A stretch of DNA of 24,019 nt from Promethearchaeota archaeon (GCA_048938895.1 JBHLLU010000059.1:1-24019); one strand, 5' to 3'; counted from the first letter of the stretch, positions 784 through 22,826 are shown. Made by a program: numbers and translations. Notes: generated by a model not told the origin, from the sequence alone.

Positions 784-784
784 A

Positions 785-1576
785 ATGGGAGGGGGATTAT
801 ATTCAATGGATAAAAAAGATTTTAACCAGACTCTTGATCTTAAAAGGATCAAACCTTATGGTGATGCAATGAATGATGGGAAAGTTCAAGTTAGTTTTAC
901 CCTTCCTGTTAAAGATGGAGAAAAAGCTATAGAAGCAGCAAAGAAATTAGCTGAAAAAATGGGGTTGGAAAAGTCTGAAATTGTATTTCATGATAAATTG
1001 GATGCAGGGTTCACATTCATAATTTTATATGGAAATTTAAAGCATACAATTGATTTTACTCAAATTAAAGTTGAATCTGTAGAGGTAGAAACGATGACTA
1101 TAGAAGAAATCAACCAATTTATTAAAGAAAAGATAAAACGTAAAATTATTGTTATAGGCGCTTCAATTGGGTCAGATGCTCATACAGTCGGTATTGATGC
1201 CATAATGAATATGAAAGGTTTTGCAGGGCATTATGGTCTTGAGAGATATGAAATGATAGAATCTTATAATTTAGGAAGTCAAATCACCAATGAAGAGTAT
1301 GTTAAAAAAGCAATTGAAGTGAACGCAGATATTTTATTAGTTTCACAAACGGTAACTCAAAAAAATATACACTTAAAAACTCTCACTAATCTAGTAGATT
1401 TATTAGAAGCAGAAGGAATTCGAGATAAAGTAATTTTAATATGTGGGGGAGCGAGAATAAGCAATGAATTAGCAAAAGAGTTAGGTTACGATGCTGGTTT
1501 TGGACCTGGAACTTATGCTGATAAAGTAGCTATTTTTGCGATTAAGGAATTTGTTAGAAGAATAGAACAAACGTAG
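785..1576 (+). CDS. kamE: Lysine 5,6-aminomutase beta subunit (adenosylcobalamin/PLP-binding)
   Basis: KPYGDAMNDGKVQVSFTLP dimerisation region; B12-binding DxHxxG motif (DAHTVG) followed by IDAIMNMKG with the PLP lysine; GGARI...GYDAGFGPGT C-terminus. Confidence 0.96.
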   Translation: MGGGLYSMDKKDFNQTLDLKRIKPYGDAMNDGKVQVSFTLPVKDGEKAIEAAKKLAEKMGLEKSEIVFHDKLDAGFTFIILYGNLKHTIDFTQIKVESVEVETMTIEEINQFIKEKIKRKIIVIGASIGSDAHTVGIDAIMNMKGFAGHYGLERYEMIESYNLGSQITNEEYVKKAIEVNADILLVSQTVTQKNIHLKTLTNLVDLLEAEGIRDKVILICGGARISNELAKELGYDAGFGPGTYADKVAIFAIKEFVRRIEQT

Positions 1577-6099: not shown

Positions 6100-7011
6100 C
6101 TAATCTAGGTATATATGTGTTCCTGCTCTTTCTTCTAAAGCATCAATAATTTTATCAATAGAGGTTATAATTGCTCTTTCTCCGCCAGATTCTAAAAAAT
6201 TAATTACTGCTTGAATTTTAGGTCCCATACTTCCTGCTGGAAATTGACCTTCGTCTAAATATTTTTTTGCCTCAGAAACAGATAATTTATCTAATTCTAT
6301 CTGGGACGGAGTTCCATAATTTAAAGAAACTTTTTCTACATCAGTCGCGATTAATAAAATGTCTGCATCTATTTGTTCTGCTAATTTTGCACTGGCGAGA
6401 TCTTTGTCAATGACAGCTTCAACACCGTAGAGCTTTTTCTTTTCTTTTATTACGGGAATCCCTCCCCCTCCACATGCAATAATTATCCAACTGCCTAATT
6501 CCATCAGTTTTTTAATTTCCCGCCATTGGTAAATTTTGATAGGTTTGGGTGAAGGTACCACTCGACGATAACCTTTAGCGGTTTTGACATAGCCAGGTTT
6601 GGGAATATCATACGCAGGTCCAATGGGTTTAGTTGGGTTTAAAAATGCTGGATCTTCAGCATCAACTTTTACATATGTAAGTACCGTAAGAAAAAGTTTT
6701 TCTTCATCTAATCCTAAATTCATTAATTCTTCATCAAGGGTAGATTCAATCATAAAACCAATCTGACCTTGAGTTTCGGCTACTAATATTTGTAAGGGTC
6801 TTTTTGAAACAGCTTGAGTTGCTTCCTGTTGTAGTAATAGGTTACCTACTTGCGGTCCATTACCGTGTGTTATTATAATATTGTAATTTTTAGCCAATTG
6901 TGCAATCTGGCTGATAGGTATTTTTAGATTTCTGAATTGTTCTTTAGTTGTCCCTTCATCTCCAAATTTTATAAGAGCATTTCCTCCCAATGCGACTATA
7001 AGCGTTTTCAA
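6100..7011 (-). CDS. arcC: Carbamate kinase
   Basis: VALGGNAL, THGNGPQVG, NPTKPIGP, YRRVVPSP, GGGGIPV, EAVIDKD, GSMGPK. Confidence 0.97.
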   Translation of the reverse strand: MKTLIVALGGNALIKFGDEGTTKEQFRNLKIPISQIAQLAKNYNIIITHGNGPQVGNLLLQQEATQAVSKRPLQILVAETQGQIGFMIESTLDEELMNLGLDEEKLFLTVLTYVKVDAEDPAFLNPTKPIGPAYDIPKPGYVKTAKGYRRVVPSPKPIKIYQWREIKKLMELGSWIIIACGGGGIPVIKEKKKLYGVEAVIDKDLASAKLAEQIDADILLIATDVEKVSLNYGTPSQIELDKLSVSEAKKYLDEGQFPAGSMGPKIQAVINFLESGGERAIITSIDKIIDALEERAGTHIYLD

Positions 7012-7286
7012 TTAATAAACCTCTAGGTAAAATTACATAAAAGTAAATGAAAAATAGATAATATTAAACCTATTATTTAAAATTTATGAAGGGTTTAACG
7101 TATGTTTTCAATTATTTTTAATGTTATTCATTAAGTATCTAAAATACAGAAGAATGCTTTTAACTATTCCTAAACTTGAATGCAGAATGTTCTTATCACG
7201 TAATTTAACACGAAATTCAACCAAACAAAAAGCTAAAGGATAAAGGATAAATATTAAAATAGTTTAAAATCACTTTAATTGCTTGT

Positions 7287-7745
7287 ATGTTTAAATCTCA
7301 TAATTTGGTAGAATCTAAGATGAAAAAGTATAATAAAGGAAGATTATTGATAACTTTGGCAACTCTAGTAATAATTATATCATCATTATATTATATAGTA
7401 TGGAGTCGAAATATCTATCTCAATGGACCTCTCAATCCTGATGATTACCATCAATTACAAGGTTGGTTCTGGCTTTTTACAATTTTCAGTGGTTTTAATA
7501 TCTTTTTATTGTTGTATTGCAAATATAAAAAGATACACCTGAGTCTTAGTGGTTATTATATGTTTTCTCCATTTATTTTAGTTATTTTAACAAGTTTTTC
7601 AATGTTGAATGTATTTACATTTAATAACTCATTAGAATATATAAATGAGCCCTTGTGGATTGAAACATACTTCAGCTTTCTGATAATCTTCGAAATAATA
7701 TTTTTCATTGGTGTATTCATAATAAATAAATATAAAAATTTATAG
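7287..7745 (+). CDS. Hypothetical membrane protein (about 4 TM helices)
   Basis: Four hydrophobic segments; fills the gap between minus-strand genes. True start may be the second Met (MKKYN). Confidence 0.65.
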   Translation: MFKSHNLVESKMKKYNKGRLLITLATLVIIISSLYYIVWSRNIYLNGPLNPDDYHQLQGWFWLFTIFSGFNIFLLLYCKYKKIHLSLSGYYMFSPFILVILTSFSMLNVFTFNNSLEYINEPLWIETYFSFLIIFEIIFFIGVFIINKYKNL

Positions 7746-7782
7746 TGTTATGAGGACTTTTTATTATTTTCAATGATTCTGA

Positions 7783-8700
7783 TTAGACAACAGAATCTGG
7801 CAGTTTCTTAAAGGTACCAGATACTTTCTCAGGCCATCCAGGATTTATTTTCATAAGTGCCGCAAGATGAAACACAGCCCAAGATCCACATAGATCGCAA
7901 TTTACATCATTCCCATAACAACAAAATGGCATTTCAAATCCCTTTTCTCCCAGATATAATGGTACCATAAAATTTTTAACAGCACAATTATTCGTAATGG
8001 CTAAAGCGTTGTGAGATAACATAAGCTCCAAAACCATTGAATTATTAAGAATAAAGTCTGGATAATTCTTTTTAAGCTCTATGACCCTCTTTATTGCTAA
8101 ATCTCGTTCCTCTAAAGATATCCAACTTAAACCTGTGTTGTCTATTTTTTTTGGTACATAAAATGTAAATACCACACCCCTAAGAATCGTATTCTTACGT
8201 AAAGAATTAATAAACTCTTCAAGATAATCCTGATTTTTTTTGGTTACGACACAGTTGCACTGAAGATCTCCACTAAAATTTTCTGGTAAATTATTCAAAT
8301 TTTTGATAACTCTCTTATAGCTTCCCTTTCCTCTTATTTCATCGTTAAGACCTTCTGGACCATCCAAGGATATCACCCACGTTATGGTTGGTCCTAAATC
8401 TATTAGAGGCAATGTCCCATTAGTTGTAATCGTATTTTGAGGAAATAATTTTATTCCTTGTTGCAGTATATCTCTTCTTAGAAGTGGTTCGCCACCCATC
8501 CAAATCATTCGAACTATTCCAAATTTTTTTCTGTACCTCTTTAATTCTTTTATCATTTGTTCTACAGACATTTCATTCTCTTTAGTAGGGGTATTTGGTG
8601 TTCCCTCGCGGTAAACAAAACAATGTTTACATTTTAAAGTACACCTGTTTGTTATATTGACCATTGCAATAGGACGTAATTCTTTTCTCAAGACTATCAC
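7783..8700 (-). CDS. Radical SAM protein with a Cys-rich C-terminal auxiliary domain
   Basis: CxxxCxxC (CTLKCKHC), GGEPLL, TTNGT, ISLDG, IRGKG; C-terminal C...CCYGNDVNCDLCG. GTG start. Confidence 0.9.
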   Translation of the reverse strand: MIVLRKELRPIAMVNITNRCTLKCKHCFVYREGTPNTPTKENEMSVEQMIKELKRYRKKFGIVRMIWMGGEPLLRRDILQQGIKLFPQNTITTNGTLPLIDLGPTITWVISLDGPEGLNDEIRGKGSYKRVIKNLNNLPENFSGDLQCNCVVTKKNQDYLEEFINSLRKNTILRGVVFTFYVPKKIDNTGLSWISLEERDLAIKRVIELKKNYPDFILNNSMVLELMLSHNALAITNNCAVKNFMVPLYLGEKGFEMPFCCYGNDVNCDLCGSWAVFHLAALMKINPGWPEKVSGTFKKLPDSVV

Positions 8701-8755
8701 ATAATCTTAAATCAAAATATCCAACATAAATTGAGCATGAATGATATTAAAGCTT

Positions 8756-10474
8756 TTATATATCTTCTTTTTTAATCCATAATTTTTTTAAAAAATGTGC
8801 TGCCATTTTAGGTCTCCTATCTCTTGTAAATACACCTTTAAAATTAATGCCACCCATCCTTAGAACACCTTGAGATGTCTTAAAATCGCATAGGTTCCAG
8901 ACATGATAACCAATAATAAATGGTTTACTCTCTATAAGCTCTATATATTTTTTTAGAAATTCGATTTGATACTCTTCACTGAACATTTCTGGAGGTTGGG
9001 AGTGCCATCCAGGGATAGTATCAGTTCCAAATTCACTTATAAAAATCGGTTTTTTGTATTTTATATATAAATTCTCAAGTTCTTCAGATAAATTCTCAAT
9101 TCCTTTTTGAATTTGACCCTGATTAACATACCATCCATAGTATCTGTTTAAGCATACCATATCAAAAAACTCAAAAGAATCATTTCTTACGTTTTGAGAA
9201 TTGATTAGGGTAATTAAACGAGATGAATCTATCTCTTTTATGAACTGGTAAAGTTCCAGAAAGAAATTCTTTGAAAGTTTACTGGACCTTGGTTCATTTG
9301 CCAAACTCCACATTATCACACTGGGATGGTTTTTGTCACGTTCATATAATTCTTGCATATATTGTTTACATAATTTTAGATGGCGATCAATATGACTACT
9401 ATCAAAAGTAAGCCCAACTGCTGGAATTTCATCAATAATTAAGAACCCAAGACTATCAGCAAGGTCCATCATTTGTTCTGAGTAGGGATAATGAGTAGTT
9501 CGAAAAGAATTTGCACCAATCCATTTCATTAAAGAATAATCTTTAATGATTACAGCTGGGAGATAACCCCTTCCTGTTACTGGAAAATCCTCATGTCGTC
9601 CAAATCCATATAACCTAACTGGTTTGTCATTCAAAAATAGCTCATTACCTTTTACTTGAATAGTTCTAATCCCAATCCTTAGAGTATAAGCATCTATAAC
9701 TGTCCCATTTTTAAGAATTTCTGCTGTTAAATCATAGAGATAGGGATTATTGGTAGACCAGAGTTCCGGATTTTTAATTATTAACTTTTTTTCTATTATA
9801 TTTTCATTATTTGACTTTTTTATTATGACTTCTTGTTTCTCTCCATTAAGCAGTATCCGAGATTCAACTGGTTGCTCATTGCCAATTTTTAACTTTATTG
9901 AAACTATTCCAGAATTATTTTCAATATTAGTAATTATAGTAATATCTTCAAGACCCTTTTTAGGGACTGAATAAAGCAAAACAGGGCGATGAATGCCACA
10001 AAATGGGAAGAAGTCAAAATTTGTATTAGGAAAGATTTGTGGCCTACCGCTCGGTGGAACACGATCAGGGGCCAATGTTCCATCAACTCTAACTACAAGA
10101 AGATTATTCTGGGGATTTAATAGATTAGTAACATCAAATTCAAACGGTAAATGACCTCCTTCATGAGATCCTATATTCTCTCCATTAAGCCATACATCTG
10201 CTAAATAATTAACAGAACCAAATCGTATGATAATTTTTTGATCATCCCAACCTTTAGGAATATCAAAGTAAGTTTGATACCATCCAGGACCTAAAAAATC
10301 CCTATTTTCAGCAAATTGATCATTCCAACTTGCAGGTACAGCTATAGGTTTCCCATTAGAATACCCCTTATACCATTCACTTTCTATTCCTTCTTCCTTA
10401 AAATCAAATCGGAAATCCCAAAAACCAGAAAGATCAATATATTGTCGATAACTATTTCTTATTGGATAAAGCAT
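8756..10474 (-). CDS. uidA: Beta-glucuronidase (GH2)
   Basis: MLYP start (ATG 10474; GTG 10483 is the alternative), AVPASWND, DFFPFCGIHRPV, GFGRHED, NSFRTTHYPY, WSLANEP (acid/base Glu), SEFG (nucleophile) and the GUS-diagnostic NxKG motif (NFKGVFTRDRRPK). Confidence 0.92.
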   Translation of the reverse strand: MLYPIRNSYRQYIDLSGFWDFRFDFKEEGIESEWYKGYSNGKPIAVPASWNDQFAENRDFLGPGWYQTYFDIPKGWDDQKIIIRFGSVNYLADVWLNGENIGSHEGGHLPFEFDVTNLLNPQNNLLVVRVDGTLAPDRVPPSGRPQIFPNTNFDFFPFCGIHRPVLLYSVPKKGLEDITIITNIENNSGIVSIKLKIGNEQPVESRILLNGEKQEVIIKKSNNENIIEKKLIIKNPELWSTNNPYLYDLTAEILKNGTVIDAYTLRIGIRTIQVKGNELFLNDKPVRLYGFGRHEDFPVTGRGYLPAVIIKDYSLMKWIGANSFRTTHYPYSEQMMDLADSLGFLIIDEIPAVGLTFDSSHIDRHLKLCKQYMQELYERDKNHPSVIMWSLANEPRSSKLSKNFFLELYQFIKEIDSSRLITLINSQNVRNDSFEFFDMVCLNRYYGWYVNQGQIQKGIENLSEELENLYIKYKKPIFISEFGTDTIPGWHSQPPEMFSEEYQIEFLKKYIELIESKPFIIGYHVWNLCDFKTSQGVLRMGGINFKGVFTRDRRPKMAAHFLKKLWIKKEDI

Positions 10475-10542
10475 AATTCTCACTTTATTATTGAAAAATA
10501 TCCAAAAACTAAATTCTTACAAAATGTAATTGATAAAAATAT

Positions 10543-11475
10543 TTAGAATTTATTTCTTAAAAAAAGCATAATAGCCTTTTGGATATGCAATCTATTTTCT
10601 GCTTGATCAAATACTATTGATTGAGATCCATCGATAACTTCTGCGGTCTGTTCGTAACCTCTCATAGCAGGTAAACAGTTCATAAAAATTGCATCTGATT
10701 TAGCTTTATTCATAACAGAAGTCGTCACTTGATATGGTAAAAATGCTTCTTTTCTTTTTTCTTCTTGATCTTGAGGTATTCCATAACTCATCCAACTATC
10801 AGTATAAATAATATCAGAATCTTTAGCAGCATCGAATGCATCGTGAAAAATCTTTATTTCAGCACCTGTTTCTTTAGATAAATTTGATATTTCATCAAAA
10901 ACTTCCTGTTCAGGTGAATACTCAGCTGAATTAGGACAGGCAATATCCATTTTCCATCCAAACATCGCACACATCCGCATTAAATCATAGGTAACATTAT
11001 TATAAGCATCTCCGAAATAAGATAATTTCATAGCCTCTAAATGTGTTTTTTTCTCCTTTATCGTCTGGAAATCAGCGAGAATCTGGCATGGATGAGCAAA
11101 ATCGTCAAGCATATTTATAACAGGCACATCAGCATATTTTGCAAGATCCCGAATGTCTTGTCTTTTAAAAACTCGCGCAGCGATGATATCAACAAATCTT
11201 GATGCAACCTTAGCTGTATCACTAATGTTTTCTTTCTTGCCGAGTGGTGAATCTTTAATCGAGTAAAAAATGGCATGACCCCCTAATTGTTGCATTCCTG
11301 TTTCAAATGAGATACGTGTTCTTAAAGATGGTTTTTCGAATAACATTAGAAGTGTTTCATGCTCGAGAGATTTATAATATTTGTTAGGATTTTTTTTAAT
11401 ATCTATTGCTTTATTTATAATAAGTTCACATTCTGACCTCGAAAGATCTGATACTTTAAGTAAATGTCTGACCAT
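10543..11475 (-). CDS. arcB: Ornithine carbamoyltransferase, probably catabolic (ArcB role)
   Basis: FEKPSLRTR carbamoyl-phosphate site, HPCQ, YTDSWMSYG, MNCLPA, DQAENRLH. Catabolic role inferred from nearby arcC and the ArcE-like gene. Confidence 0.92.
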   Translation of the reverse strand: MVRHLLKVSDLSRSECELIINKAIDIKKNPNKYYKSLEHETLLMLFEKPSLRTRISFETGMQQLGGHAIFYSIKDSPLGKKENISDTAKVASRFVDIIAARVFKRQDIRDLAKYADVPVINMLDDFAHPCQILADFQTIKEKKTHLEAMKLSYFGDAYNNVTYDLMRMCAMFGWKMDIACPNSAEYSPEQEVFDEISNLSKETGAEIKIFHDAFDAAKDSDIIYTDSWMSYGIPQDQEEKRKEAFLPYQVTTSVMNKAKSDAIFMNCLPAMRGYEQTAEVIDGSQSIVFDQAENRLHIQKAIMLFLRNKF

Positions 11476-11609
11476 TATTTATCACATTTTTAGTGTTTTT
11501 AATTATATAATGTTTGATTCCTTAAATTATAGGTAAAATTTTTTGTTTCATATTCAAAAAGATAGGAGGATTCGCTTTTTAATGAATAATTGAATTTTTT
11601 TTAAATTTC

Positions 11610-13232
11610 TCACAAATTATTTGGACGACGTAACACTTTTCCAGGATATTTATGCTTTTGTTTAAAATCGTCGATAACTACAATCCCATTTATGATTACA
11701 TAAGGTATACCTTCAGGAAATTGATGTGGTTCTTCAAATGTAGCTTTATCACTTATTTTATCGGGCTCAAATATAACTAAGTCTGCCCAATTACCTTCTC
11801 TCAACAAACCTCTATCTCCTAATCCTAATTTTTGGGCAGGAAATGAAGTCATTCTTCTTATTGCATCTTCGATTGTAAGCAATTTTTCCTCCCTTACATA
11901 TTTCCCCAATACTCGGGGATAAGTCCCAAAAGTTCTTGGATGATTCAGCTTTAAACCGGGTAATAATTTTCCAGCAACAGAATCTGTTCCAAACATTTGA
12001 AATCGATGAGTCATAATTCTACGAATATCTTCCTCTCCCATAGTTTCTATAGTAATTGATGTTTCACACTTTTCTTCAATTAGAATTTTAAAGAAAGTTT
12101 CCCAGTCGTCATTATATCCCATCAATTTAGAAATTTCTGTGATACTTTTACCTGCGAGTTCTTTCCATTCCTCCTTCTTGAAATAGGTTGGATAAATATG
12201 ACTAAACCCATCAATTTTAATCCAATTTTCCCAATCATCAGATTCCAGAGAACTTATCTCAATGATTTGCTTTTGTATTTCTGGATCTTTTATTCTATTT
12301 AAAATTGTTTCAGGATCACCTTCTCGCGCCCAAGGAGGAAGTGCTGTGACAAGGCTTGTCTGCCCACGATTATATGGATACTGATCAAAAGTAATATCTA
12401 TTCCTTTCTTATTTGCCTCTTCGACTAAATGTAATGATTCCTTGCTCATTCCCCAAAAAGGTTGACCTGCAACTTTAAAATGTGCTATTTGTCCTCCTAT
12501 GCATCCAGACTTTTCTACAATTTCAACAAATTCCTTAATTGCCTCTAATAAGTTTTTTCCTTCATCTCGAATGTGAGAAAAGTAAAGTCCATTATATTGA
12601 CCAACAACTTTCGTTAATTCTATTATTTCAGAGGTTTTAGCAAATACTTGAGGTGCATAAATAAGACCAGTACTCATGCCAAAAGCACCTGCCTCCATTG
12701 CTTCAGCTACATATTGTTTCATATTTTCAAGCTCTTCATTTGTAGGAGAACGATTCTCAAAACCAGGACCTCCGGCAATTCGAACTGTCTCAAACCCTAA
12801 AACAAATACTACATTTGCAGAGATTTTTAATTTTTCCATTTCATCCAAATATTCAGAATAACTATTCCATGTAATAGGAATATTTCCAACAGCAGGGATT
12901 TTAAATAATTCCTTAAATAGTTCAATTTTATCAACGGGTACTGGAGCAAGCCCGTCTCCACACATTCCTACTACAGCTGTAGTAATTCCCTGGTGGACTG
13001 CTGCATCCATACCACTGTAAATTGGTAGTATTACATCTGTGTGAGAGTGCATATCAACAAATCCGGGGCATACAATCATGTTTGAGGCATCTATTTCTCT
13101 TTCTGCATTCCCACTTATTTTTATTCGTATTTTTGCAACCTTTCCATCTTTAGTGGCAATATCTCCCAAATAAGCTGGATTTCCTGCACCATCAACTATT
13201 TTCCCATTTCTAACAATAATATCAAAGTTCAT
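11610..13232 (-). CDS. N-acyl-D-amino-acid deacylase (D-aminoacylase, amidohydrolase superfamily)
   Basis: PGFVDMHSHTD, GMCG (Cys ligand), STGLIYAP, SHIRDEG, DQYPY, HPRTFGTYPRVLG, DRGLL...ADLV. Confidence 0.9.
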   Translation of the reverse strand: MNFDIIVRNGKIVDGAGNPAYLGDIATKDGKVAKIRIKISGNAEREIDASNMIVCPGFVDMHSHTDVILPIYSGMDAAVHQGITTAVVGMCGDGLAPVPVDKIELFKELFKIPAVGNIPITWNSYSEYLDEMEKLKISANVVFVLGFETVRIAGGPGFENRSPTNEELENMKQYVAEAMEAGAFGMSTGLIYAPQVFAKTSEIIELTKVVGQYNGLYFSHIRDEGKNLLEAIKEFVEIVEKSGCIGGQIAHFKVAGQPFWGMSKESLHLVEEANKKGIDITFDQYPYNRGQTSLVTALPPWAREGDPETILNRIKDPEIQKQIIEISSLESDDWENWIKIDGFSHIYPTYFKKEEWKELAGKSITEISKLMGYNDDWETFFKILIEEKCETSITIETMGEEDIRRIMTHRFQMFGTDSVAGKLLPGLKLNHPRTFGTYPRVLGKYVREEKLLTIEDAIRRMTSFPAQKLGLGDRGLLREGNWADLVIFEPDKISDKATFEEPHQFPEGIPYVIINGIVVIDDFKQKHKYPGKVLRRPNNL

Positions 13233-13361
13233 TATAGTAAAGTTATATTTATATTTTCAATCTTTGACTATGAATGAATTTAATTTGTCAGTAGATTTAA
13301 ATTTATATACATCCTAATAGAATTTGAGGAAAGTAAATTAATAATTTAATTATGTGTAAAA

Positions 13362-13763
13362 TTGACTAATAAAAATCAAACTTTTAAGTCAAGAAAGAAA
13401 TTTAAATTTATATTTATTGCCAAAAGAATATCTTATTGGGGTATAATCTTATCAGTAGCTTTAATCATAATAAGTATAATATCGATTTTTGTTATTCTTT
13501 ATTATCCCTCACCTATACGTGTTCTTCCTGCGGTTTTCGATCGACGAACATATCTTACAAAAGGAGATTTGATTCAAATTATAATTTTTTCTATAACAAT
13601 TCCTAGTTTATTAAGCACATTTATTTTTATACTAATAAATTTGATTTTGAAAAAGATATTCAAGAAATTTTACCCAACATCTAATGAAAAAGAAATTATT
13701 AATACTCTTGAATCTCTTAAATTACGGAGAATTCAAGATCCTGATCCTTCTAATCTATTTTAA
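13362..13763 (+). CDS. Hypothetical membrane protein (2 TM helices)
   Basis: TTG start, two long hydrophobic segments, TTTATATA at 13302-13309 upstream; 9-nt convergent overlap with the next gene. Confidence 0.55.
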   Translation: MTNKNQTFKSRKKFKFIFIAKRISYWGIILSVALIIISIISIFVILYYPSPIRVLPAVFDRRTYLTKGDLIQIIIFSITIPSLLSTFIFILINLILKKIFKKFYPTSNEKEIINTLESLKLRRIQDPDPSNLF

Positions 13764-14921
13764 TACTTCTTCTTTAAAATATTCACGTGTATAGGATAAA
13801 CTCTTTAAAATTTCATGATCTTGAGAGTTCAGTTTTTCATTTAGAAGTCGACCAATAAGTTCTCCTAAACCAGGTCCTAACATAAAACCTTGACCACACA
13901 TCCCAACGGCATTAATATATCCTTCAATGTTGTTAACTTTGCCAACAATTGGATTTCCATCTGGAGTCATTGGATATAAACCGCGCCATGTTCTTCTTAC
14001 TTTAAGATTTTTTAACCTTGGTAATAATTGAATCATTCTTTTAGAAATTTGAGGTAAAAATGAACCAGTTTCTCTCCTATCTACACCAATCTTATTAGGA
14101 TCCGGAGTTAAGCAGAATAATATCTTACCTTCCTTATTTTGATAAAAATAATAATTTTTTGAGTCGCCAAATTTGGGATCAGTATTTGGTCTAATATCAA
14201 CCACCATCGTATCAAAAAACTTTATTACTGGTTCTGTAATTCCTGCTTCATGAGAATCTGGTATTACAGGTATATTTATATCAATCATATTTCCAATTTC
14301 CTTAGCATGAGCACCAGCAGCATTAATAATATTGTTGGCTTTATATGTAGCATTTGTTGTTTTAACTCCTATGACTTTTCTTTTTTTTAATAGAATTTTT
14401 ATTACTTCTTCATTAAAATGATAATCTACTCCGCTTTCTTTTGACTTTCTGTAAAATGCATGTAAAGCTAACAATGGAGAGGCATTTCCGTCTTCGGGGC
14501 TATAAGTGCCTCCCAGTAATCCCTCATCATTTATCCCTGGAACTAATTGTTTAATTTTTTGAGGCTCAACAAAATCTATATTTAACCCATAACTTTTTTG
14601 GAGTTTGACAGTGTCTTTTAGCACTTTTTCATCTTGTTCTGTATATGCTAAAAATGTATACCCTCCTTGATGCCACCATATATCATCACCATAATTTTCT
14701 TCCCAATTAGAAAATATCTCAATTGATCTTTGACATAGGAGAGATTTTCCAATATGTGAATGAGTGCTTCGAATTCCACCAATGGCATGCTTATTATCAG
14801 CTTGAGCAACAGATGGTAATGAATCTATGACTAAAGTTCTAAGACCTTCGCTTGCTGTTGCCAAGGCAGTAGGAACACCAATACTTCCAGCACCGATAAT
14901 AATTACATCATACTCTACCAT
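13755..14921 (-). CDS. FAD-dependent amino-acid dehydrogenase beta subunit (proline dehydrogenase PdhB / sarcosine oxidase beta, DAO family)
   Basis: IIGAGSIG dinucleotide fold, INAAGAHA, RTWRGLYPMTPDGNPIVG, GMCGQGFMLGPG; 2 nt downstream of the alpha-type subunit gene. Confidence 0.85.
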   Translation of the reverse strand: MVEYDVIIIGAGSIGVPTALATASEGLRTLVIDSLPSVAQADNKHAIGGIRSTHSHIGKSLLCQRSIEIFSNWEENYGDDIWWHQGGYTFLAYTEQDEKVLKDTVKLQKSYGLNIDFVEPQKIKQLVPGINDEGLLGGTYSPEDGNASPLLALHAFYRKSKESGVDYHFNEEVIKILLKKRKVIGVKTTNATYKANNIINAAGAHAKEIGNMIDINIPVIPDSHEAGITEPVIKFFDTMVVDIRPNTDPKFGDSKNYYFYQNKEGKILFCLTPDPNKIGVDRRETGSFLPQISKRMIQLLPRLKNLKVRRTWRGLYPMTPDGNPIVGKVNNIEGYINAVGMCGQGFMLGPGLGELIGRLLNEKLNSQDHEILKSLSYTREYFKEEVLK

Positions 14922-14923
14922 AA

Positions 14924-17008
14924 TTAATTCCCCCCTTTTGAATTTTTAGCTTTCGCAAAAATCCCAAGCGGTACTTCTATAAATAAGGGGCGCTTGGTAC
15001 CCGGTGTAATTGAATTAGTAGAAATCCCTTCCTCCCTAAATATCCGATTTATAAGGGGAGTGCAAGTTTTTCCACCACATGCACCCATTCCTACTTTAGT
15101 AAGTGCCTTTAATTCATTAAAATCTTTAACTCCAACCCGAATCCATTTTCGAATCTCTCTAACAGATATCCGTTCACACCTACATACTATCGTATCATCA
15201 TCAGTATAAGATTTTTGATATAGATCAATAGGTTCGGTGTAAGTACTCTTATATAGTTTAACTCCTACTGCTTGTTTTGCGATTTTTGATGGTAATTTAA
15301 CAGTTATAAGTTGAGTTTTAGGGAATTCTTTCAATATTCTTGCTCTATGAACTGTATATTCTCCTAGTTCTTGATTATTACTAACCACTATAATTTTCTG
15401 ATCCTTTACTAATTTTTCTGCTGATAACTCAAGAGGGAAAGTAACTAGGGGATTTTCTTTATCTTTTCTGTAATCCCTTAATACAACAGCCAGTCCCGGG
15501 CATACAGCTACACATTTTCCACAACCAATACATTCTTCCTCCCCCTTGAAATAAGGGAGTTGTGTAATTAAATCATTAATTGTTTCTATTTGCTTATTAG
15601 GACAAACTGAAGTACATGGATTACATGGAATTTCTTGATTGCAATAGAAAACAGGATAAATTCCTTCTTCTTCCTGAGATACTTCTATATCTTTTGGAAG
15701 AGGAGGTTTTTTTTTCATTAACTCTGAAAATTTCTGGAGTTCATTAAGATCCTCTTCTATTTTAATTCCTCTTTCTTTTAGTATTTTTAAAGCTTCAATT
15801 TTGCCTGTGAAAATTGCGGCTGATGCTTCAGCGATTTCTTGAGCATCTCCTGCCACCCATACATTATAATTATATTCCTTAGCTTTTTGATAAAATTCAT
15901 CCACAGGATTTAATCCAACGGCTATTAATATTGTATCACAAGCATAATTCTTTTCAGTTCCAGCAATAGTGTTAAATTTATCATCTATTTGTGTAATGGT
16001 AATAGATTCGACCTTATTGAGTCCATTTGCAGAAATTATTGTATGATTAGTATAAATAGGAACGCCTAATCTTCTTAATTTGTCTTCATGAACTTTATAT
16101 CCGCCACATTGTGGCATTGCTTCAATCAAACCCACAACGTCGATTCCTGCTTGGATTGCATGGTATCCTGCAATTAAACCGACATTACCACCCCCAACAA
16201 TGAAAATTCGTTCCGCTGCTTTAACCAGATCACGATTTACAAGAGTCTGAAATGCACCTGCTCCATAAACTCCGGGTAATGTATTACCAGGAAAAACAAG
16301 CATACTTTCCCTTGCGCCTGTAGCTATTAAAAGATACTTAGGTTTTACTAATACATACTCATTGTTATCTTTAAAAATTCCAACAAAGCCATCGCTAAAA
16401 ACAGCTAAACATACACTATTTAGCCATATTTCTATACTTGGTAATTCTTTTACTGATTTTCCAAGGATTTGTGCTATTTCAATACCTCGCTTTCCAGCAT
16501 ACACATCTTCTTGAGAGCCAAAAAATTTATGAGTTTGGAGTACTAACTTTCCCCCAAGCGTGCCTTTATCATCCACTAATAGTGTATCAATATTATTTTC
16601 TCCAAGAGCTTTAACTGCTGAAAGACCTGATGGTCCTGCTCCAATTACTAAAACCTCAACAAATTTAATATCTGAATCACCTACACTTATGGGGTCATCT
16701 TCAGCAGGAAGTTCAGGCAACCCATCACAACTTTTAATTATCATTCCTTCCCTAAGTGTGGTCATGCAAGCTTTGACAGGTATGCCATTCGCTACTACAT
16801 TACATTGAGAACATTGACCATTCGCACAAAAAATTCCTTGGGGGCTTAAATCTTTGACATGATGGCCAAAAACTTTAATTTTATTTAGAAAAAGAGCAGA
16901 AGATATAACCATTCCTTCATATCCCTGTAGTTCTTTCCCGTCAAATTTAAAAGCTATTTTCTTTTTTTCGGGAATTTCTAATATGGGATGGGAAGTTATT
17001 TTCTCCAT
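14924..17008 (-). CDS. Multidomain alpha subunit: [2Fe-2S] + FAD/NAD(P) oxidoreductase + 2x[4Fe-4S] ferredoxin + BFD-like [2Fe-2S]
   Basis: CANGQCSQC...KAC; GAGPSG, ATGA and GGGNVG motifs; CNQEIPCNPCTSVCP and CIGCGKCVAVCP; C-terminal CRCE...GMGACGGKTC...RP. Confidence 0.88.
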   Translation of the reverse strand: MEKITSHPILEIPEKKKIAFKFDGKELQGYEGMVISSALFLNKIKVFGHHVKDLSPQGIFCANGQCSQCNVVANGIPVKACMTTLREGMIIKSCDGLPELPAEDDPISVGDSDIKFVEVLVIGAGPSGLSAVKALGENNIDTLLVDDKGTLGGKLVLQTHKFFGSQEDVYAGKRGIEIAQILGKSVKELPSIEIWLNSVCLAVFSDGFVGIFKDNNEYVLVKPKYLLIATGARESMLVFPGNTLPGVYGAGAFQTLVNRDLVKAAERIFIVGGGNVGLIAGYHAIQAGIDVVGLIEAMPQCGGYKVHEDKLRRLGVPIYTNHTIISANGLNKVESITITQIDDKFNTIAGTEKNYACDTILIAVGLNPVDEFYQKAKEYNYNVWVAGDAQEIAEASAAIFTGKIEALKILKERGIKIEEDLNELQKFSELMKKKPPLPKDIEVSQEEEGIYPVFYCNQEIPCNPCTSVCPNKQIETINDLITQLPYFKGEEECIGCGKCVAVCPGLAVVLRDYRKDKENPLVTFPLELSAEKLVKDQKIIVVSNNQELGEYTVHRARILKEFPKTQLITVKLPSKIAKQAVGVKLYKSTYTEPIDLYQKSYTDDDTIVCRCERISVREIRKWIRVGVKDFNELKALTKVGMGACGGKTCTPLINRIFREEGISTNSITPGTKRPLFIEVPLGIFAKAKNSKGGN

Positions 17009-17044
17009 TTGGATTTATTATAAGAATTTAAATAGTAATATATT

Positions 17045-19225
17045 TTATTGATAAGGTTTAATTATTGAAAGAACATCATCAAAATCGATTCCCAATTCTT
17101 TAACCTTTGCGATAGTAGGACAACCTTTTTGATTCCATCCTCGTACCTTATAAACCGCATCTTGAAGTTTTAAATATTGGTCCATTCTGTATGTTCGAAG
17201 TAATTTGATTTTTTCTTCTATGGTTTTTGATTCTATCTCAAATCCTAATTCTTTTAGCTGTTCATCATATCTCTCTGTTCGGCTTTCATATTCTAATGGT
17301 GAGACTGGACCCATAGCCCTATAAGGAAAATTGTTATCATGTTCTCTTAATCCTTTCCCTTGACGTATATTGAAAATTCTTTGAAAATTGTATACAACTT
17401 CTGACATGTATATAATATCATCAGGTGTAGATTCTTTTCCCGTCACAGCAGAGAAATATTGAGCGTACCAAGCAATGTGATCAGGAACCTTAGCTCTAAC
17501 AAGTTCCCCAGTATCAGGATCTTTAATTGGATAGTCTGCTTGAGATTTTGGTTGAATATCATTCCAAGGAAGTTTGCAGAGGCCACAAAGTCCAAACCAA
17601 GTACGCCATAAGGGGAACCAACGTAATGCTTTTGCTTTATCCTCAAAAGTAGGAATTGAATTTCTTATTACATCCTCAAATATCAACCAAGCTTCATCAT
17701 GCTGAGGACCCTTATTAGTAAAACCATAACCTCCTTGTTGAGCTAAAGATTCTTTAGTTACGTATTCAGAAAATTCCAAACCCTTATGTTCCATACCAAT
17801 GTCTTGCATAAGTTCCGGATTTGCCCCATATTCTTTGATAAAAATCTCTTTCATCTCTTTAATCCCTTTACCAACTGTCAGACCAAAGCCATTACCTTCT
17901 GCCATTTGATGGATTAATTCGATTGCAGCTTCTGCATTCCCAAAATTGAGTTCTAATCCTCCAGTAATCTCCTTATTTAAGATCCCTAACTCGAAACATT
18001 CCATTACAAATGCTATACCCGTTCCTACGCTTATTGTGTCGAGACCATAGGTATCACAGTAAAAATTAGTCTCTAATATCCATTTAGGGTCCCAGACTCC
18101 CCAATTTGAACCACAACCGGCAATTGTTTCATATTCAGGACCATCCACAATTACTTTTTGACCTTTAAAGGGTCCTGTTCTAATTTCATAATTTTCTGAA
18201 TAATGAGAACAACTTACCGTGCACCCTATCCAACATCCATCTGCACCCTCTCTTCCAGAATATATCCCCCTCATTATTTCTCTGTTATAAGGAATATCCT
18301 TACCACTAATCTCCTTATGTCTACCATAACGGAAGTTTTCAGTGGGTAATAAATCTGTTACATTCATGATATCAGGAAGATGTCCTGTTCCTACCCTTCT
18401 CATTTCATTTTGAATAGGATCTAATTCCATTATTTCCTGAGTATGAGCTTTCCCTATTTCCCTTGCTGTTTCTAAGTCATCTGGATTGTTTGATTTTATT
18501 GTAACTTTAGGAGATCGACATACTATCGCTTTAATTTTTTTATCTGCGAACACAGTCCCGATTCCTCCCCTTCCTGCTTGTTTTGAAGATGCCCAATTTC
18601 TTCCTTTTACAAACCAAGAAAAATTAAGCATTCCCCATTTTGTATTTTTTGCAGCAGGACCAGTGCATACTACTGAAATTCGTTGTTTTTCACTTTCTTC
18701 TTGTGCAAATCTTTCAGTTAGTTGCTGTGTAAGCTCGTGTGAATATTCTGAAAGGTTCTCATAAGTTGTTGCAGGTTCTATTTTGATGCTACCTTCAACA
18801 CCATCAATAAATATTATTACTTCTTCTTGAGATTTACCTTGAATCTCTAATGCATCAAATCCAGAAAACTTTAGATATGGTCCAAAATAACCACCAACAT
18901 TTGAATCAATAATTATCCCCGTTAATGGTGAAATGGAGGTAACAATTGATTTTCCTGAGCCAGGATAAAAAATACTTCCACCTAAAGGTCCAGAAGATAT
19001 ACAAATTTCATTTTCAGGTTCGTTCCATTTTACACTGTGATCTTTTGGAAGCGAATTCCACATTAACCATAAATCAAACCCTTTTCCCCCAATGAATTTT
19101 TCTTTCATTTCATCAGAAACTGGTTTAATCGCAATTTCTTGCTTAGATAGATTTATATACAAAGTTCTATTAGCATAACCCTTCTGAACGTCATATATTT
19201 CATACTTTTTTTCTATAAAACTCAT
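17045..19225 (-). CDS. Aldehyde:ferredoxin oxidoreductase family (tungstopterin, 4Fe-4S)
   Basis: SPLTG...DSNVGGYFGPYLKFSGFDAL, AGRGGIG, CWIGCTVSC, GPEYET, CDTYGLDTIS, GLCGLCK, YKVRGW. Subfamily not determinable by eye. Confidence 0.93.
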   Translation of the reverse strand: MSFIEKKYEIYDVQKGYANRTLYINLSKQEIAIKPVSDEMKEKFIGGKGFDLWLMWNSLPKDHSVKWNEPENEICISSGPLGGSIFYPGSGKSIVTSISPLTGIIIDSNVGGYFGPYLKFSGFDALEIQGKSQEEVIIFIDGVEGSIKIEPATTYENLSEYSHELTQQLTERFAQEESEKQRISVVCTGPAAKNTKWGMLNFSWFVKGRNWASSKQAGRGGIGTVFADKKIKAIVCRSPKVTIKSNNPDDLETAREIGKAHTQEIMELDPIQNEMRRVGTGHLPDIMNVTDLLPTENFRYGRHKEISGKDIPYNREIMRGIYSGREGADGCWIGCTVSCSHYSENYEIRTGPFKGQKVIVDGPEYETIAGCGSNWGVWDPKWILETNFYCDTYGLDTISVGTGIAFVMECFELGILNKEITGGLELNFGNAEAAIELIHQMAEGNGFGLTVGKGIKEMKEIFIKEYGANPELMQDIGMEHKGLEFSEYVTKESLAQQGGYGFTNKGPQHDEAWLIFEDVIRNSIPTFEDKAKALRWFPLWRTWFGLCGLCKLPWNDIQPKSQADYPIKDPDTGELVRAKVPDHIAWYAQYFSAVTGKESTPDDIIYMSEVVYNFQRIFNIRQGKGLREHDNNFPYRAMGPVSPLEYESRTERYDEQLKELGFEIESKTIEEKIKLLRTYRMDQYLKLQDAVYKVRGWNQKGCPTIAKVKELGIDFDDVLSIIKPYQ

Positions 19226-19328
19226 AGAATTTCACTCTATTCAGTTCTGAATACAAAATTTAAAACATGATTTTAGATTATGGATGATTTAATGAGACTT
19301 TAGAATTAAATATTATTTACTAGGTTTT

Positions 19329-19363
19329 AAAAAAAAAATAGAAAAAAAGATATTAAAAAAAAG
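19329..19363 (-). terminator. Oligo-T terminator downstream of the flavodoxin gene
   Basis: Three A-tracts on the plus strand (T-tracts on minus) immediately after the stop at 19366. Confidence 0.5.
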
Positions 19364-19365
19364 TT

Positions 19366-19929
19366 TTAAATCTTGCTAGCTAAATTTTTAGCCCATTTAC
19401 GTATTTCATCCCAATTTCTTGAATCATAAACTCCCGGTTTTGTTTCCTTAAAACCTGCTGGCTTTAAATTTTCTTTTTCTGCATCTAAATATTTTGCATA
19501 TATTCTACCCATCTGATTATAATCCCAGATACCTCCGAACATCATCATCGAAATTGGATTAATATAATATTTGATAGCTTTATCTTCAAGGTACTTTTTG
19601 GTTATTCTGCTAATTTCCTCATTTTCTCCTTTGTATTCCATGAGTGCTCGCGCACCAGAAGATACAAATATTGCTACTTTCTTTTTATTAAGTTCACTAC
19701 TAAACTTCTTTAAAAAGGCTTTAGTTTTACTCGTCCACATTTCCATTTTCATTCCGCTTCCTATTATAACAAGTTCATATTCTGATATATCTTTAACCTT
19801 CTCTTCTTTAAGATTTACGACCTTTACTTCAAAGCCTTCTTCTCGAAGAACTTTAGCAATTTCTTCTGCGGTGCCAGTTGTTGCTCCATAACGAGTTCCA
19901 TACGCAATTAATACTTTTTTATTTGCCAT
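19366..19929 (-). CDS. Flavodoxin domain protein (Flavodoxin_5 / HemG-like)
   Basis: LIAYGTRYGATTGTAEEIA FMN phosphate loop, YELVIIGSG, KVAIF, FGG, DSRNWDEIRKWA. Confidence 0.88.
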   Translation of the reverse strand: MANKKVLIAYGTRYGATTGTAEEIAKVLREEGFEVKVVNLKEEKVKDISEYELVIIGSGMKMEMWTSKTKAFLKKFSSELNKKKVAIFVSSGARALMEYKGENEEISRITKKYLEDKAIKYYINPISMMMFGGIWDYNQMGRIYAKYLDAEKENLKPAGFKETKPGVYDSRNWDEIRKWAKNLASKI

Positions 19930-20099
19930 TTATCCCACTTTTTTTTTATATTTTCTGTTATCCCATACAATAACAAATCGATTGAGTGTTGAAGATAACC
20001 TACAGCTGTAGCACCACTCATCTCCAGAAGTAATTGATTAACAGGATATAGGTATACAATATTTTCATTAGCAGAACTTATAAATGTTCCTCTGAATTT
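19908..20099 (-). pseudogene. Possible C-terminal gene remnant (regulator-like helices)
   Basis: Hand-translated stop-free frame KFRGTFISSANENIVYLYPVNQLLLEMSGATAVGYLQHSIDLLLYGITENIKKKWDKWQIKKY*, bounded upstream by TGA and overlapping the flavodoxin start by 22 nt. Confidence 0.35.
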
Positions 20100-20190
20100 T
20101 CAATTTCAATTATTATTCTGGAATCAGAACTTAATAAATTAAAAATTGGTCTAGTAAATTTTTATTATAACTTTTAATTATTCATTTATT

Positions 20191-20679
20191 ATGCCTGCTT
20201 TAGCTCATTTAGGAATAGGGTTTGCAACTAAGCGATTTGCTCCTCAAATCCCACTTTGGATCTTATTAATAAGTTCAATGGCACTGGACCTCTTATCAGG
20301 TGTTTTTTTCTTTGCACTCTGGATTAACCATGGACTATTCATGTCAGTTGTGTGGACAATCATTTTTATGCTAATTACGATGCTGATCACCTACCATCTG
20401 AAATCAAAGAAGGAAAATAATATATCATTTTTTAATATAGAAACTTGGACCATTAGTACTATAGTTGGATTTGTTGTTTTTAGTCATTTTATACTAGACT
20501 TTATTGGATGGCCCATGAGTGTTTTAGACTCTAATGCAACTGGAGTACCTCTTCTCTTTAATGACAATATAAATATAGGACTAGGGGTGTATAGTACATG
20601 GGTTGGAGCATTATCAATGGATCTTGGAGTATTCACAGTAGGACTTGTGATCTACATTCACTATAAACTAAAAAAATGA
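20191..20679 (+). CDS. Membrane protein, YdjM/DUF457-like putative metal-dependent hydrolase
   Basis: Hydrophobic helices with the spaced pattern N-terminal H, LD, NHGL and SHFILD. Confidence 0.65.
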   Translation: MPALAHLGIGFATKRFAPQIPLWILLISSMALDLLSGVFFFALWINHGLFMSVVWTIIFMLITMLITYHLKSKKENNISFFNIETWTISTIVGFVVFSHFILDFIGWPMSVLDSNATGVPLLFNDNINIGLGVYSTWVGALSMDLGVFTVGLVIYIHYKLKK

Positions 20680-20701
20680 GATTTTTATTCAATTATTTTA
20701 T

Positions 20702-21454
20702 TTATTTCTGAGCTTTAAAACAAATTAACCCTCCAAAATTTTTTACGGTAACACCCGCTTCGGATTCCTCTTTCACAATCTTTGTTTTTATCTCAAGATT
20801 TTCTGCGATTTGTAAGATTCGCTGTATTTTATTTCTATTCTTTGGATTTTTTAAATATTCTTCAGTTAGGATGATATAATTTGGCTTAGGTGAATTAGGA
20901 TTCCTTTTAATGTATCTCAATTCATTATCAATTTCTCTCCAAGTATAGAGAATTTTTGAGAACTTCTCATCTTTGTTGATGATTTCTTTCAATTCTTCTA
21001 GTATTAATAATCCCTCTTGATTGGATGTTTTATCAACAATTTTTCCAAAAGATTCTAGTGTCTTTAAGTAATAGACATCTTTTTGATTCCTCGCTTGATT
21101 ACCTATGATCTTAGAAAAAACAACCTGTTTATCTCCTCTTTTCAATAACCATAAATGATGTTTATTAACGTGATTTAGAAACTCATCTGAATATATTTTT
21201 TTGGGTGGTGATAACAGAATTACACTCCTAATACCTTCTTTTATTAAAGGTCTTAATACATTAATGATCTCCTCATGAAAATGGTATAAATGCTTTTTAT
21301 TCTGCCTTTTTCTCTTCCTTCCACGTTTTATCCTATAATAAAACCTAATCGATTCACTATATATTCTCCAGAATACAGCATCATTATCATGAAGACCAAT
21401 TAGTATGGCTACTTGATGACCACGTTTAATTCGTTTTTGTTTTTTCTTAGTCAT
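20702..21454 (-). CDS. Pelota/aRF1-like protein with domains 2-3 only
   Basis: C-terminal KTKIVKEESEAGVTVKNFGGLICF resembles the eRF1_3 end; FHEEIINVL...RSVILLSPP...F resembles pelota domain 2; no N-terminal domain and no GGQ. Confidence 0.6.
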   Translation of the reverse strand: MTKKKQKRIKRGHQVAILIGLHDNDAVFWRIYSESIRFYYRIKRGRKRKRQNKKHLYHFHEEIINVLRPLIKEGIRSVILLSPPKKIYSDEFLNHVNKHHLWLLKRGDKQVVFSKIIGNQARNQKDVYYLKTLESFGKIVDKTSNQEGLLILEELKEIINKDEKFSKILYTWREIDNELRYIKRNPNSPKPNYIILTEEYLKNPKNRNKIQRILQIAENLEIKTKIVKEESEAGVTVKNFGGLICFKAQK

Positions 21455-21488
21455 GATAAAATAGCAAAATTAGAAATATAAAAAAAAT

Positions 21489-22826
21489 TTAAAGATTATC
21501 CTCAATAAACTTATCCAGTACTTCTTCAATTGAAGGACTCCCAATTGATTCAATGTCATAAGATACTTTTACTATCGGTTTGTTTGTTTTAATTAACTTA
21601 GTTAAGTCAATAGGACTTCCATTTAAGATTATATCTGCTTTCACATTATTGAGAGTTTTTTCTAAATCCTCTATTTGTTGATCTGTGTATCCCATAGCAG
21701 GTACTATATGGGTTATTTGGGGGAAATCTTCGAATACATCTTTCATAGAACCTGCCAAAGCTTTTCTTGGATCAACGACCTTCGCTTCTGCATTTTTAGC
21801 AGCAACATAAGCAGCACCTATTGACATCCCTCCATGTGTTAAAGTAGGGCCGTCTTCTACGACTACAACCTTCTTTCCTTTAAGTTTTAATGGATCTTCT
21901 GCTTTAACCACGGAATTTGTATAGACTTTTATGGCATTCGGATTTAACTCATCAAGATTTTTCTCCACAGTTTTGATATCTTCTGGTTTCGCGCTATTCA
22001 TTTTGTTTATTACAAACACATCTGCATATTTTGCATTTACTTCTCCGGGGTGGTATTTTATCTCGTGACCTGGTCGTAATGGATCGACAACAACAAAAAG
22101 CAAATTGGGAATATAGAAAGAAATTTCATTATTTCCACCATCAAAAATAATTACATCCGCCTCCTTCTCAGCTTCTCTGATGATCTTCTCATAATCAACT
22201 CCTGAATAAATCACAAGACCCTGTCGTATATAAGGCTCATACTCTTCACGTTCTTCAATACTGCAGTCATATGTATCTAAATCTTCATATTTTTCAAATC
22301 TCATAATATTTTGTTGTATTAAATCACCATATGGCATTGGTTCGCGAATAGCTACAACTTTATATCCCTTGCTTTTTAAATATCGATATGTAGCTCGAGA
22401 AACTTGACTTTTTCCACATCCTGTTCTTACAGCACAAATTGCAACAACTGGTTTATTAGCTTTTAATTGAGTAAATCTGCCTGATATTAATCGATAATTT
22501 GCTCCTGCAGCTAAAGCTCGTGATGCTTTATGCATAACCTCTTCGTGAGAGACATCCGAATAAGCAAAGACTACTTCATCAACATTATGATTTTTAATTA
22601 ATTCCTCAAGTGAATCTTCTGATACCATCGGAATTCCATTTGGATATAGTTTACCTGCTAATTCAGCTGGATAACTTCGTTCAGCTTCTTCAGTAGTACC
22701 TACGTTTTGCTCTCCAGCAATAGTAAATGCTATCACCTCATATTCATCTTTATCCCTGAAAACTGTGTTAAACACATGAAAATCCATTCCTAAAGCACCA
22801 ATTATAATAACTTTCTTTCTCTTCAT
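21489..22826 (-). CDS. arcE: COG2403 P-loop protein (cyclic 2,3-diphosphoglycerate synthetase-like family), probable arginine synthetase
   Basis: DFHxFN, YPAELAGKLYPNGIP, FAYSDV, P-loop AVRTGCGKS, PMPYGDL, IEEREEYEP, DGGNN, HPGE, EDGPTLTHGGM, PAMGY. arcB and arcC are in the window and no arginine deiminase is. Confidence 0.75.
   Translation of the reverse strand: MKRKKVIIIGALGMDFHVFNTVFRDKDEYEVIAFTIAGEQNVGTTEEAERSYPAELAGKLYPNGIPMVSEDSLEELIKNHNVDEVVFAYSDVSHEEVMHKASRALAAGANYRLISGRFTQLKANKPVVAICAVRTGCGKSQVSRATYRYLKSKGYKVVAIREPMPYGDLIQQNIMRFEKYEDLDTYDCSIEEREEYEPYIRQGLVIYSGVDYEKIIREAEKEADVIIFDGGNNEISFYIPNLLFVVVDPLRPGHEIKYHPGEVNAKYADVFVINKMNSAKPEDIKTVEKNLDELNPNAIKVYTNSVVKAEDPLKLKGKKVVVVEDGPTLTHGGMSIGAAYVAAKNAEAKVVDPRKALAGSMKDVFEDFPQITHIVPAMGYTDQQIEDLEKTLNNVKADIILNGSPIDLTKLIKTNKPIVKVSYDIESIGSPSIEEVLDKFIEDNL

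Follow-up and report, generated by a model that had tools for sequence, protein, structure and literature searches.

A candidate ATP-conserving arginine synthetase pathway in a conserved gene cluster of a Promethearchaeota archaeon

Arc genes of the locus and the arginine genes of the genome

The window analysed here is a 24,019-nt stretch of DNA from a Promethearchaeota archaeon (GCA_048938895.1, JBHLLU010000059.1:1-24019), located on contig C109 of a 4.65-Mb metagenome-assembled genome (MAG) that is 98.74% complete. It carries the genes for a carbamate kinase (CK; arcC), an ornithine carbamoyltransferase (OTC; arcB/argF) and a 445-aa P-loop protein, designated P0001, which is a candidate arginine synthetase of the ArcE type (Table 1). 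An initial sequence-only reading had placed these three genes on one strand of the window and interpreted them as an arginine pathway free of arginine deiminase (ADI). The listing of open reading frames (ORFs), together with scans against protein families, recovers all three at the positions that it gave, on the minus strand. The CK and OTC genes both score above the cut-offs of their respective models, and each is the sole match over cut-off in the genome. Against the putrescine carbamoyltransferase model the OTC reaches 285 bits, short of the cut-off of 500. P0001 is likewise the single copy of its family in the genome.

No ADI is among the 19 ORFs of the window that were compared with Pfam, as the sequence-only reading had held, and the ADI family PF02274 has no match anywhere in the genome, in a search that does detect ADI in three of 14 control genomes; the genome-wide check for arcA that had been proposed thus returned nothing. 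The corresponding check for arginase revealed no bona fide arginase. The single strong gene of that family is agmatinase-like, with 170.5 bits against the agmatinase model (just under the cut-off of 174.3) and 98.6 bits against the arginase model. This agmatinase-like gene is found directly after the arginyl-tRNA synthetase gene (argS), on the same strand (L006; G000:C155:1564-4559). Both argG and argH are present, together on contig C75, and carB is located on contig C4. With one CK and one OTC, and with neither ADI nor arginase found, the genome needs another source of citrulline, and this gap is the same one that led to the discovery of ArcE.

The arginine synthetase pathway of Thermococcus kodakarensis

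TK2200 (ArcE) of T. kodakarensis reversibly converts arginine, ADP and phosphate to citrulline, ATP and ammonia (Michimori, Yokooji and Atomi, 2024; PMC11032458). According to the account of its discovery in that paper, it was found through a search for genes that take the place of arcA where arcC is present. Homologues beside arcB and arcC are described there, and the three-enzyme route was named the arginine synthetase pathway (PMC11032458). The sequence-only reading had already named this reaction and its partnership with arcB and arcC, in agreement with the paper. The passages on distribution report arcE homologues “also in Lokiarchaeota”, name Hyperthermus and Pyrodictium among the other holders, and use the distantly related CpgS as the outgroup (PMC11032458). 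In full-text literature searches, the pathway in Asgard archaea was not treated beyond this one sentence.

Co-occurrence and linkage in the class and the phylum

Homologues of P0001 were sought, along with CK, OTC and PF02274, in 121 genomes of the same class, in which related genomes do not count as independent samples. A homologue is present in 68 of the 121 genomes, CK in 72 (E <= 1e-30; 65 over the model cut-off) and OTC in 99 (E <= 1e-60; 89 over the cut-off). Both the homologue and CK occur in 61 genomes, and in 42 neither was found. Where the two share a contig (41 genomes), they lie within 30 kb of one another in 39 and within 2 kb in six. The homologue and OTC share a contig in 48 genomes, at a distance of up to 30 kb in 47 and up to 2 kb in seven; the linkage count uses the 91 OTC rows that exceed the cut-off, after 30 weaker rows, probably representing another carbamoyltransferase, had been dropped. 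In every linked case the homologue is on the same strand as CK or OTC, and the linked cases come from 10 genera and three families. The co-location of the P0001 homologue with CK and OTC is far beyond chance. The comparison of synteny suggested at the outset therefore bears out a three-gene linkage that is kept across the class (121 genomes; 18 loci). One of the exceptions to linkage within 30 kb is G058, in which the homologue is 52 kb from CK. In genomes G008, G018, G019, G055, G106 and G111, arcE, arcB and arcC form a tight row, with 39-227 bp between the genes. Such a row, in some cases continued by an ornithine aminotransferase gene, occurs in the most distant families searched (f2 and f6) as well as in G111 (f1).

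PF02274 has matches in 26 of the 121 class genomes, 25 of which are weak partial matches of 20-35 bits. The only full-length ADI in the class (161.8 bits) is that of G116, where it lies beside OTC and CK and where a P0001 homologue is absent. At this locus (L031; G116:C12:68000-77566), ADI and OTC are encoded in one 759-aa frame at 73454-75721, which suggests an OTC-ADI fusion protein, and CK is at 72487-73416. The OTC and CK of G116 are only 41-47% identical to those of the window. The distribution was also surveyed in 81 genomes of the phylum, at least 80% complete and drawn from 20 families, among which a P0001 homologue (E <= 1e-50) is found in 67 genomes and 17 families. ADI and the homologue are complementary in the genome studied here and in G116, with two exceptions in the phylum sample (see Discussion). 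This complementarity matches the logic by which TK2200 was found, and the linkage agrees with the homologues near arcB and arcC described in the same paper. The listed DNA runs with the locus are sediment, marsh, soil and mangrove metagenomes, apart from two that are labelled “metagenome” only; none of the 21 runs listed is an RNA run.

Gene order of the wider cluster

The proteins of the window were compared by tblastn with 18 loci, 17 of which are ArcE loci. A long gene order, comprising ArcE, an aldehyde:ferredoxin oxidoreductase (AOR)-family protein, a 694-aa Fe-S flavoprotein, a DAO-family flavoprotein, OTC and CK, is found at 13 of the 17 ArcE loci (L015-L026 and L032; genera g1, g3, g4, g5, g11 and g14). 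The remaining four (in G055, G106, G111 and G008) have a compact row in which ArcE, OTC and CK follow one another directly. A homologue of the ornithine aminotransferase adjoins CK at 15 of the 17 loci.

The window represents the long form, loosened by inserted genes and small opposite-strand ORFs. Its AOR-family protein, which directly follows arcE in the 13 long-order loci, scores far under the NCBIfam cut-offs for AOR and GAPOR. The two flavoproteins, also kept in 13 of the 17 loci, resemble the alpha and beta components of sarcosine oxidase and proline dehydrogenase: the larger has 145.6 bits against the soxA family, under its cut-off, and the smaller remains under the cut-offs of the soxB and ThiO models. 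In both of the same-genus loci compared (L024 and L025), the flavodoxin-like protein has an 81% identical homologue at the same place, as does the 162-aa protein of the opposite strand at 61-62% identity. Apart from this 162-aa ORF, the cluster genes shared with the same-genus loci are 75-92% identical at the protein level, and the gene order of the contig is common to them. The four inserted genes (radical SAM, GH2 glycosidase, amidohydrolase and the 250-aa ORF) have a homologue in none of the 18 loci compared. The 250-aa ORF was considered as a possible ArcE fragment and was rejected by comparison. It is clear that the arc genes share a common cluster ancestry, though they do not form one operon here.

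Table 1. Features of the window, in order of position. Bit scores are followed by model cut-offs where these apply.
Feature	Position (nt)	Strand	Basis
Lysine 5,6-aminomutase alpha (cut by window start) and beta	1-1576	+	NF052384, 464 bits, C-terminal part (alpha); NF052385, 392 bits, over cut-off (beta)
Penicillin-amidase-family (Ntn hydrolase) protein, 816 aa	1639-4089	-	
Ornithine--oxo-acid aminotransferase, RocD-like, convergent with arcC	4351-5610	+	TIGR01885, 524.7 bits (cut-off 378.4)
arcC, carbamate kinase	6100-7011	-	TIGR00746, 368.2 bits (cut-off 358.25)
Radical-SAM gene, inserted	7783-8700	-	
GH2 glycosidase, inserted	8756-10483	-	
arcB/argF, ornithine carbamoyltransferase	10543-11475	-	TIGR00658, 361 bits (cut-off 280.85); both OTCace Pfam domains
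Amidohydrolase, 540 aa, inserted	11610-13232	-	
DAO-family FAD oxidoreductase, 388 aa, sarcosine-oxidase-beta / proline-dehydrogenase-beta-like	13755-14921	-	PF01266, 199.6 bits
Fe-S flavoprotein, 694 aa, sarcosine-oxidase-alpha / proline-dehydrogenase-alpha-like	14924-17008	-	Fer2_4, Pyr_redox_2, Fer4 and BFD domains
Aldehyde:ferredoxin oxidoreductase-family protein, 726 aa	17045-19225	-	AFOR_N and AFOR_C domains
Flavodoxin-like protein	19366-19929	-	Flavodoxin_5 domain
162-aa protein, splitting arcE from the rest of the cluster	20191-20679	+	No family match
ORF of 250 aa, inserted after arcE	20702-21454	-	No family match
Candidate arcE-type arginine synthetase, P-loop enzyme, 445 aa (P0001)	21489-22826	-	ORF, translation, homologues, gene context

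Two further features lie at the start of the window. The lysine 5,6-aminomutase genes, situated beside the arginine cluster, are signs of a B12-dependent lysine fermentation, and the gene for the penicillin-amidase-family protein is found between them and the ornithine aminotransferase gene.

Family, motifs and predicted fold of P0001

At the thresholds applied, neither Pfam nor NCBIfam has a family that P0001 matches, and a lookup in the ESM Atlas gave generic cluster names only. Its nearest proteins in a collection of 5.8 billion proteins are 80-97% identical and come from MAGs labelled as Asgard lineages. The Asgard origin that had been proposed from the sequence agrees with these names and with the taxa of the Atlas clusters. 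The anticipated mislabelling is also real, as the sources of close homologues call them “predicted GTPase” or “cyclic 2,3-diphosphoglycerate synthase”. In an exhaustive search, the family comprises 2956 clusters at E <= 0.001 and 418 at E <= 1e-30, and full-length representatives score 356-515 bits against P0001 at 41-58% identity. In an alignment of 43 sequences, the full-length identity to P0001 is 46% for Hyperthermus butylicus (P0291), 45% for Pyrodictium occultum (P0327) and 44% for Ignisphaera aggregans. These named crenarchaeal homologues came from a search started with a thermophile-like representative (P0138), which returned Thermoproteota names only and none of the Thermococcales.

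The Walker A motif of P0001 is deviant (RTGCGKS, with GKS at residues 138-140). In the family alignment, the P-loop takes the form RTGxGKS, with G136, G138 and K139 nearly invariant, and an N-terminal motif, GAxGRDFHxFN, is also conserved. A quick tree of 58 family members, which does not include TK2200 or CpgS, unites the six Asgard sequences in a clade (support 99) that is separate from the clade of named crenarchaeal sequences (support 99). The class genomes hold at most one full-length family member each, except that G013 carries, at the end of a contig, another copy that is nearly full-length. Given this single-copy distribution, the Lokiarchaeota homologue listed in the 2024 paper should be an orthologue of P0001. 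Four related genomes (G043:C7:70280-70591, G064:C187:1828-2058, G023:C43:31281-31427 and G113:C37:34189-35218) have short additional matches to one terminal part of ArcE, N or C, close to the full gene. The distance is about 0.3 to 5 kb, and in three of these genomes 0.3-1.1 kb; the matches look like remnants of partial tandem duplications.

The AlphaFold2 model of P0001 (pLDDT 92.6, pTM 0.91) finds its best fold match in CpgS (8oru; E 1e-18), at 17% identity and with a TM-score of 0.45. The best match after CpgS is LpxK (4EHY; E 5.9e-9, TM-score 0.59 on the target), the same entry that the 2024 paper gives for the model of TK2200, for which it reports an LpxK-like nucleotide pocket (PMC11032458). 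CpgS is also the best match of P0001 among solved structures by single sequence (E 1.2e-4, 24.4 bits), and it is reached by a profile of the 43 family sequences with E 1.3e-17 and 66.9 bits, the best stretch covering about 110 residues. The CpgS of Methanothermus fervidus (PDB 8ORK and 8ORU; also 9SXB) and P0001 belong to the same superfamily and have the same two-domain P-loop architecture. Single sequence, profile and fold alignment nevertheless all describe the kinship as remote, so that the earlier expectation that P0001 would not group closely with CpgS holds. The gene contexts of the two proteins are unlike as well, and an identity of P0001 as CpgS was rejected on the low identity, the TM-score and the gene context.

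Discussion

The cluster very probably encodes the published arginine synthetase pathway, operating in the catabolic direction in an amino-acid-fermenting Asgard archaeon. By homology with the T. kodakarensis enzyme, P0001 would convert arginine, ADP and phosphate to citrulline, ammonia and ATP. The OTC of the window would then split citrulline into ornithine and carbamoyl phosphate, from which the CK would gain a second ATP, giving a predicted yield of two ATP per arginine, and the ornithine would probably be handed to the neighbouring ornithine aminotransferase. The catabolic direction is favoured because argG, argH and carB are present in the genome and because the genes linked to arcE are catabolic. 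ArcE is read as catabolic where argG and argH coexist with it in the pertinent discussion of Michimori et al. (2024; PMC11032458), and the same reasoning would apply here.

The comparison with known systems is informative in both directions. The same three kinds of enzyme are found in T. kodakarensis (TK2200, TK0871 and TK2158), and arcA was not found in the present genome. In both organisms the P-loop protein has been mislabelled as a GTPase or cDPG (cyclic 2,3-diphosphoglycerate) synthase, and its predicted fold is nearest to LpxK 4EHY among structures other than CpgS. The arc genes of T. kodakarensis have locus numbers that are far apart, whereas here they belong to a conserved cluster, to which AOR-family, proline-dehydrogenase-like and ornithine aminotransferase genes are added. 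T. kodakarensis, as portrayed in the 2024 paper, is without argG, argH and carbamoyl phosphate synthetase, in contrast to this genome with its argG, argH and carB. The habitat labels differ too, being sediment, marsh, soil and mangrove here and not hydrothermal. The classical arcABC pathway of Halobacterium salinarum and Pseudomonas aeruginosa has the OTC and CK steps and the products ornithine, CO2, NH3 and ATP in common with the proposed route. Its first step, however, is a hydrolytic ADI reaction without a gain of ATP.

Several observations weigh against an ATP-conserving, catabolic pathway at this locus. The three arc genes span 16.7 kb and are separated by opposite-strand ORFs and lineage-specific genes, so they are not a single operon. 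The MAG has a contamination of 7.49%, a concern that is countered by the same-genus loci with their common gene order. In the class sample, the homologue occurs without CK in seven genomes and CK without the homologue in 11; many of these are fragmented MAGs. The single-contig genome G093, of the same genus, has its homologue 2.35 Mb from the OTC-CK pair, and the arcE linkage has accordingly been lost at least once. Full-length ADI occurs in two of the 81 phylum genomes (G151 and G171), both of which also hold the homologue, and these are the exceptions to the complementarity of the two enzymes; a few genomes with both ArcA and ArcE are noted as exceptions in the 2024 paper as well, where its distribution is discussed (PMC11032458). 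The equilibrium constant that the paper gives for ArcE is a value at 80 °C (PMC11032458). The kinship of P0001 to ArcE was gauged through proteins of the genera listed as holders, and no Thermococcales were recognised among the 150 best family representatives by 20 cluster look-ups and composition screens. Finally, the single OTC of the genome must also serve arginine synthesis, and its presence is therefore not specific to catabolism.

This last point also favours the strongest of the alternatives, in which ArcE would run mainly toward arginine synthesis, or the pathway would only supply carbamoyl phosphate and ornithine for anabolism and not ATP. The reaction is reversible and, according to the 2024 study, helps T. 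kodakarensis to form arginine in vivo (PMC11032458), and in the same organism the pathway is described as supplying carbamoyl phosphate for pyrimidines and for hydrogenase maturation (Michimori et al., 2026; PMC13260591). Such a role is unlikely in the present organism, since with argG, argH and carB in the genome neither arginine nor carbamoyl phosphate needs a route of this kind, and since CK and the ornithine aminotransferase, which are markers of catabolism, are linked to arcE in 15 of the 17 loci. The interpretation of ArcE as catabolic beside argG and argH (PMC11032458) points the same way.

It is less probable still that P0001, as a member of the wider COG2403-like family, acts on another guanidino or ureido compound and not on arginine and citrulline. 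The size and diversity of the family at the permissive threshold would leave room for other activities, and the catalytic residues of ArcE are not defined in the enzymological account of the 2024 paper, which covers the assay of a single member (PMC11032458). The neighbouring carbamoyltransferase, however, fits the OTC model and not that for putrescine carbamoyltransferase, the conserved ornithine aminotransferase consumes the product to be expected from arginine, and the complementarity with ADI holds within the class. That P0001 is a cDPG synthetase making a thermoprotectant, as NCBI labels many of its close homologues and as the first rank of CpgS among solved structures in sequence and fold might suggest, is scarcely credible: the match to CpgS is confined to a short best stretch and a low TM-score where family representatives align at full length with far higher scores, genes of arginine and ornithine metabolism, not of glycolysis, make up the conserved surroundings, and hyperthermophilic methanogens are the organisms from which cDPG is known, whereas the listed DNA runs with this locus carry the labels of sediment, marsh, soil or mangrove metagenomes (two of them “metagenome” only).

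Arginine breakdown through ArcE, OTC and CK could also be the front end of a larger conserved Asgard module that leads from arginine, ornithine and proline to glutamate and harvests both ATP and low-potential electrons, an extension that is put forward tentatively and is somewhat more doubtful than not. In such a module, ornithine and two ATP would be gained from ArcE, OTC and CK; glutamate semialdehyde or pyrroline-5-carboxylate would come from both the aminotransferase and the proline-dehydrogenase-like flavoenzyme; and the AOR-family enzyme might oxidise glutamate semialdehyde to glutamate with ferredoxin or flavodoxin as the acceptor. The genome holds three Aldedh genes and one ornithine cyclodeaminase-family gene. 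The notion that the AOR-family enzyme is necessary for want of aldehyde dehydrogenases was accordingly rejected; with three ordinary Aldedh genes available, this enzyme is not strictly needed, and the module is for that reason no more than a working proposal.

The arginine synthetase pathway and its presence in Lokiarchaeota are already in print, in the distribution passages of the 2024 paper (PMC11032458), and the novelty of the present finding is modest. Its value lies in distribution and gene context and not in a new mechanism: the new points are the near-universal occurrence of the gene among the sampled genomes of the phylum (67 of 81) and its usual linkage to genes for an AOR-family protein, a proline-dehydrogenase-like enzyme and ornithine aminotransferase. 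Public records carry these arcE-type genes as “GTPase” or “cyclic 2,3-diphosphoglycerate synthase”, a widespread annotation error that hides the pathway.

No closer relatives of eukaryotes are known than the Asgard archaea. The few that have been cultured live by slow, syntrophic fermentation of amino acids, in which every ATP counts. If Asgard archaea generally use ArcE instead of ADI, metabolic models of these organisms would gain a second ATP per arginine. Taken with the conserved AOR-family and proline-dehydrogenase-like partners, the frequency of the arcE homologue in the phylum sample, where full-length ADI is rare, could mean that deiminase-free fermentation of arginine, ornithine and proline belongs to the core energy traits of the Asgard archaea and is no curiosity.

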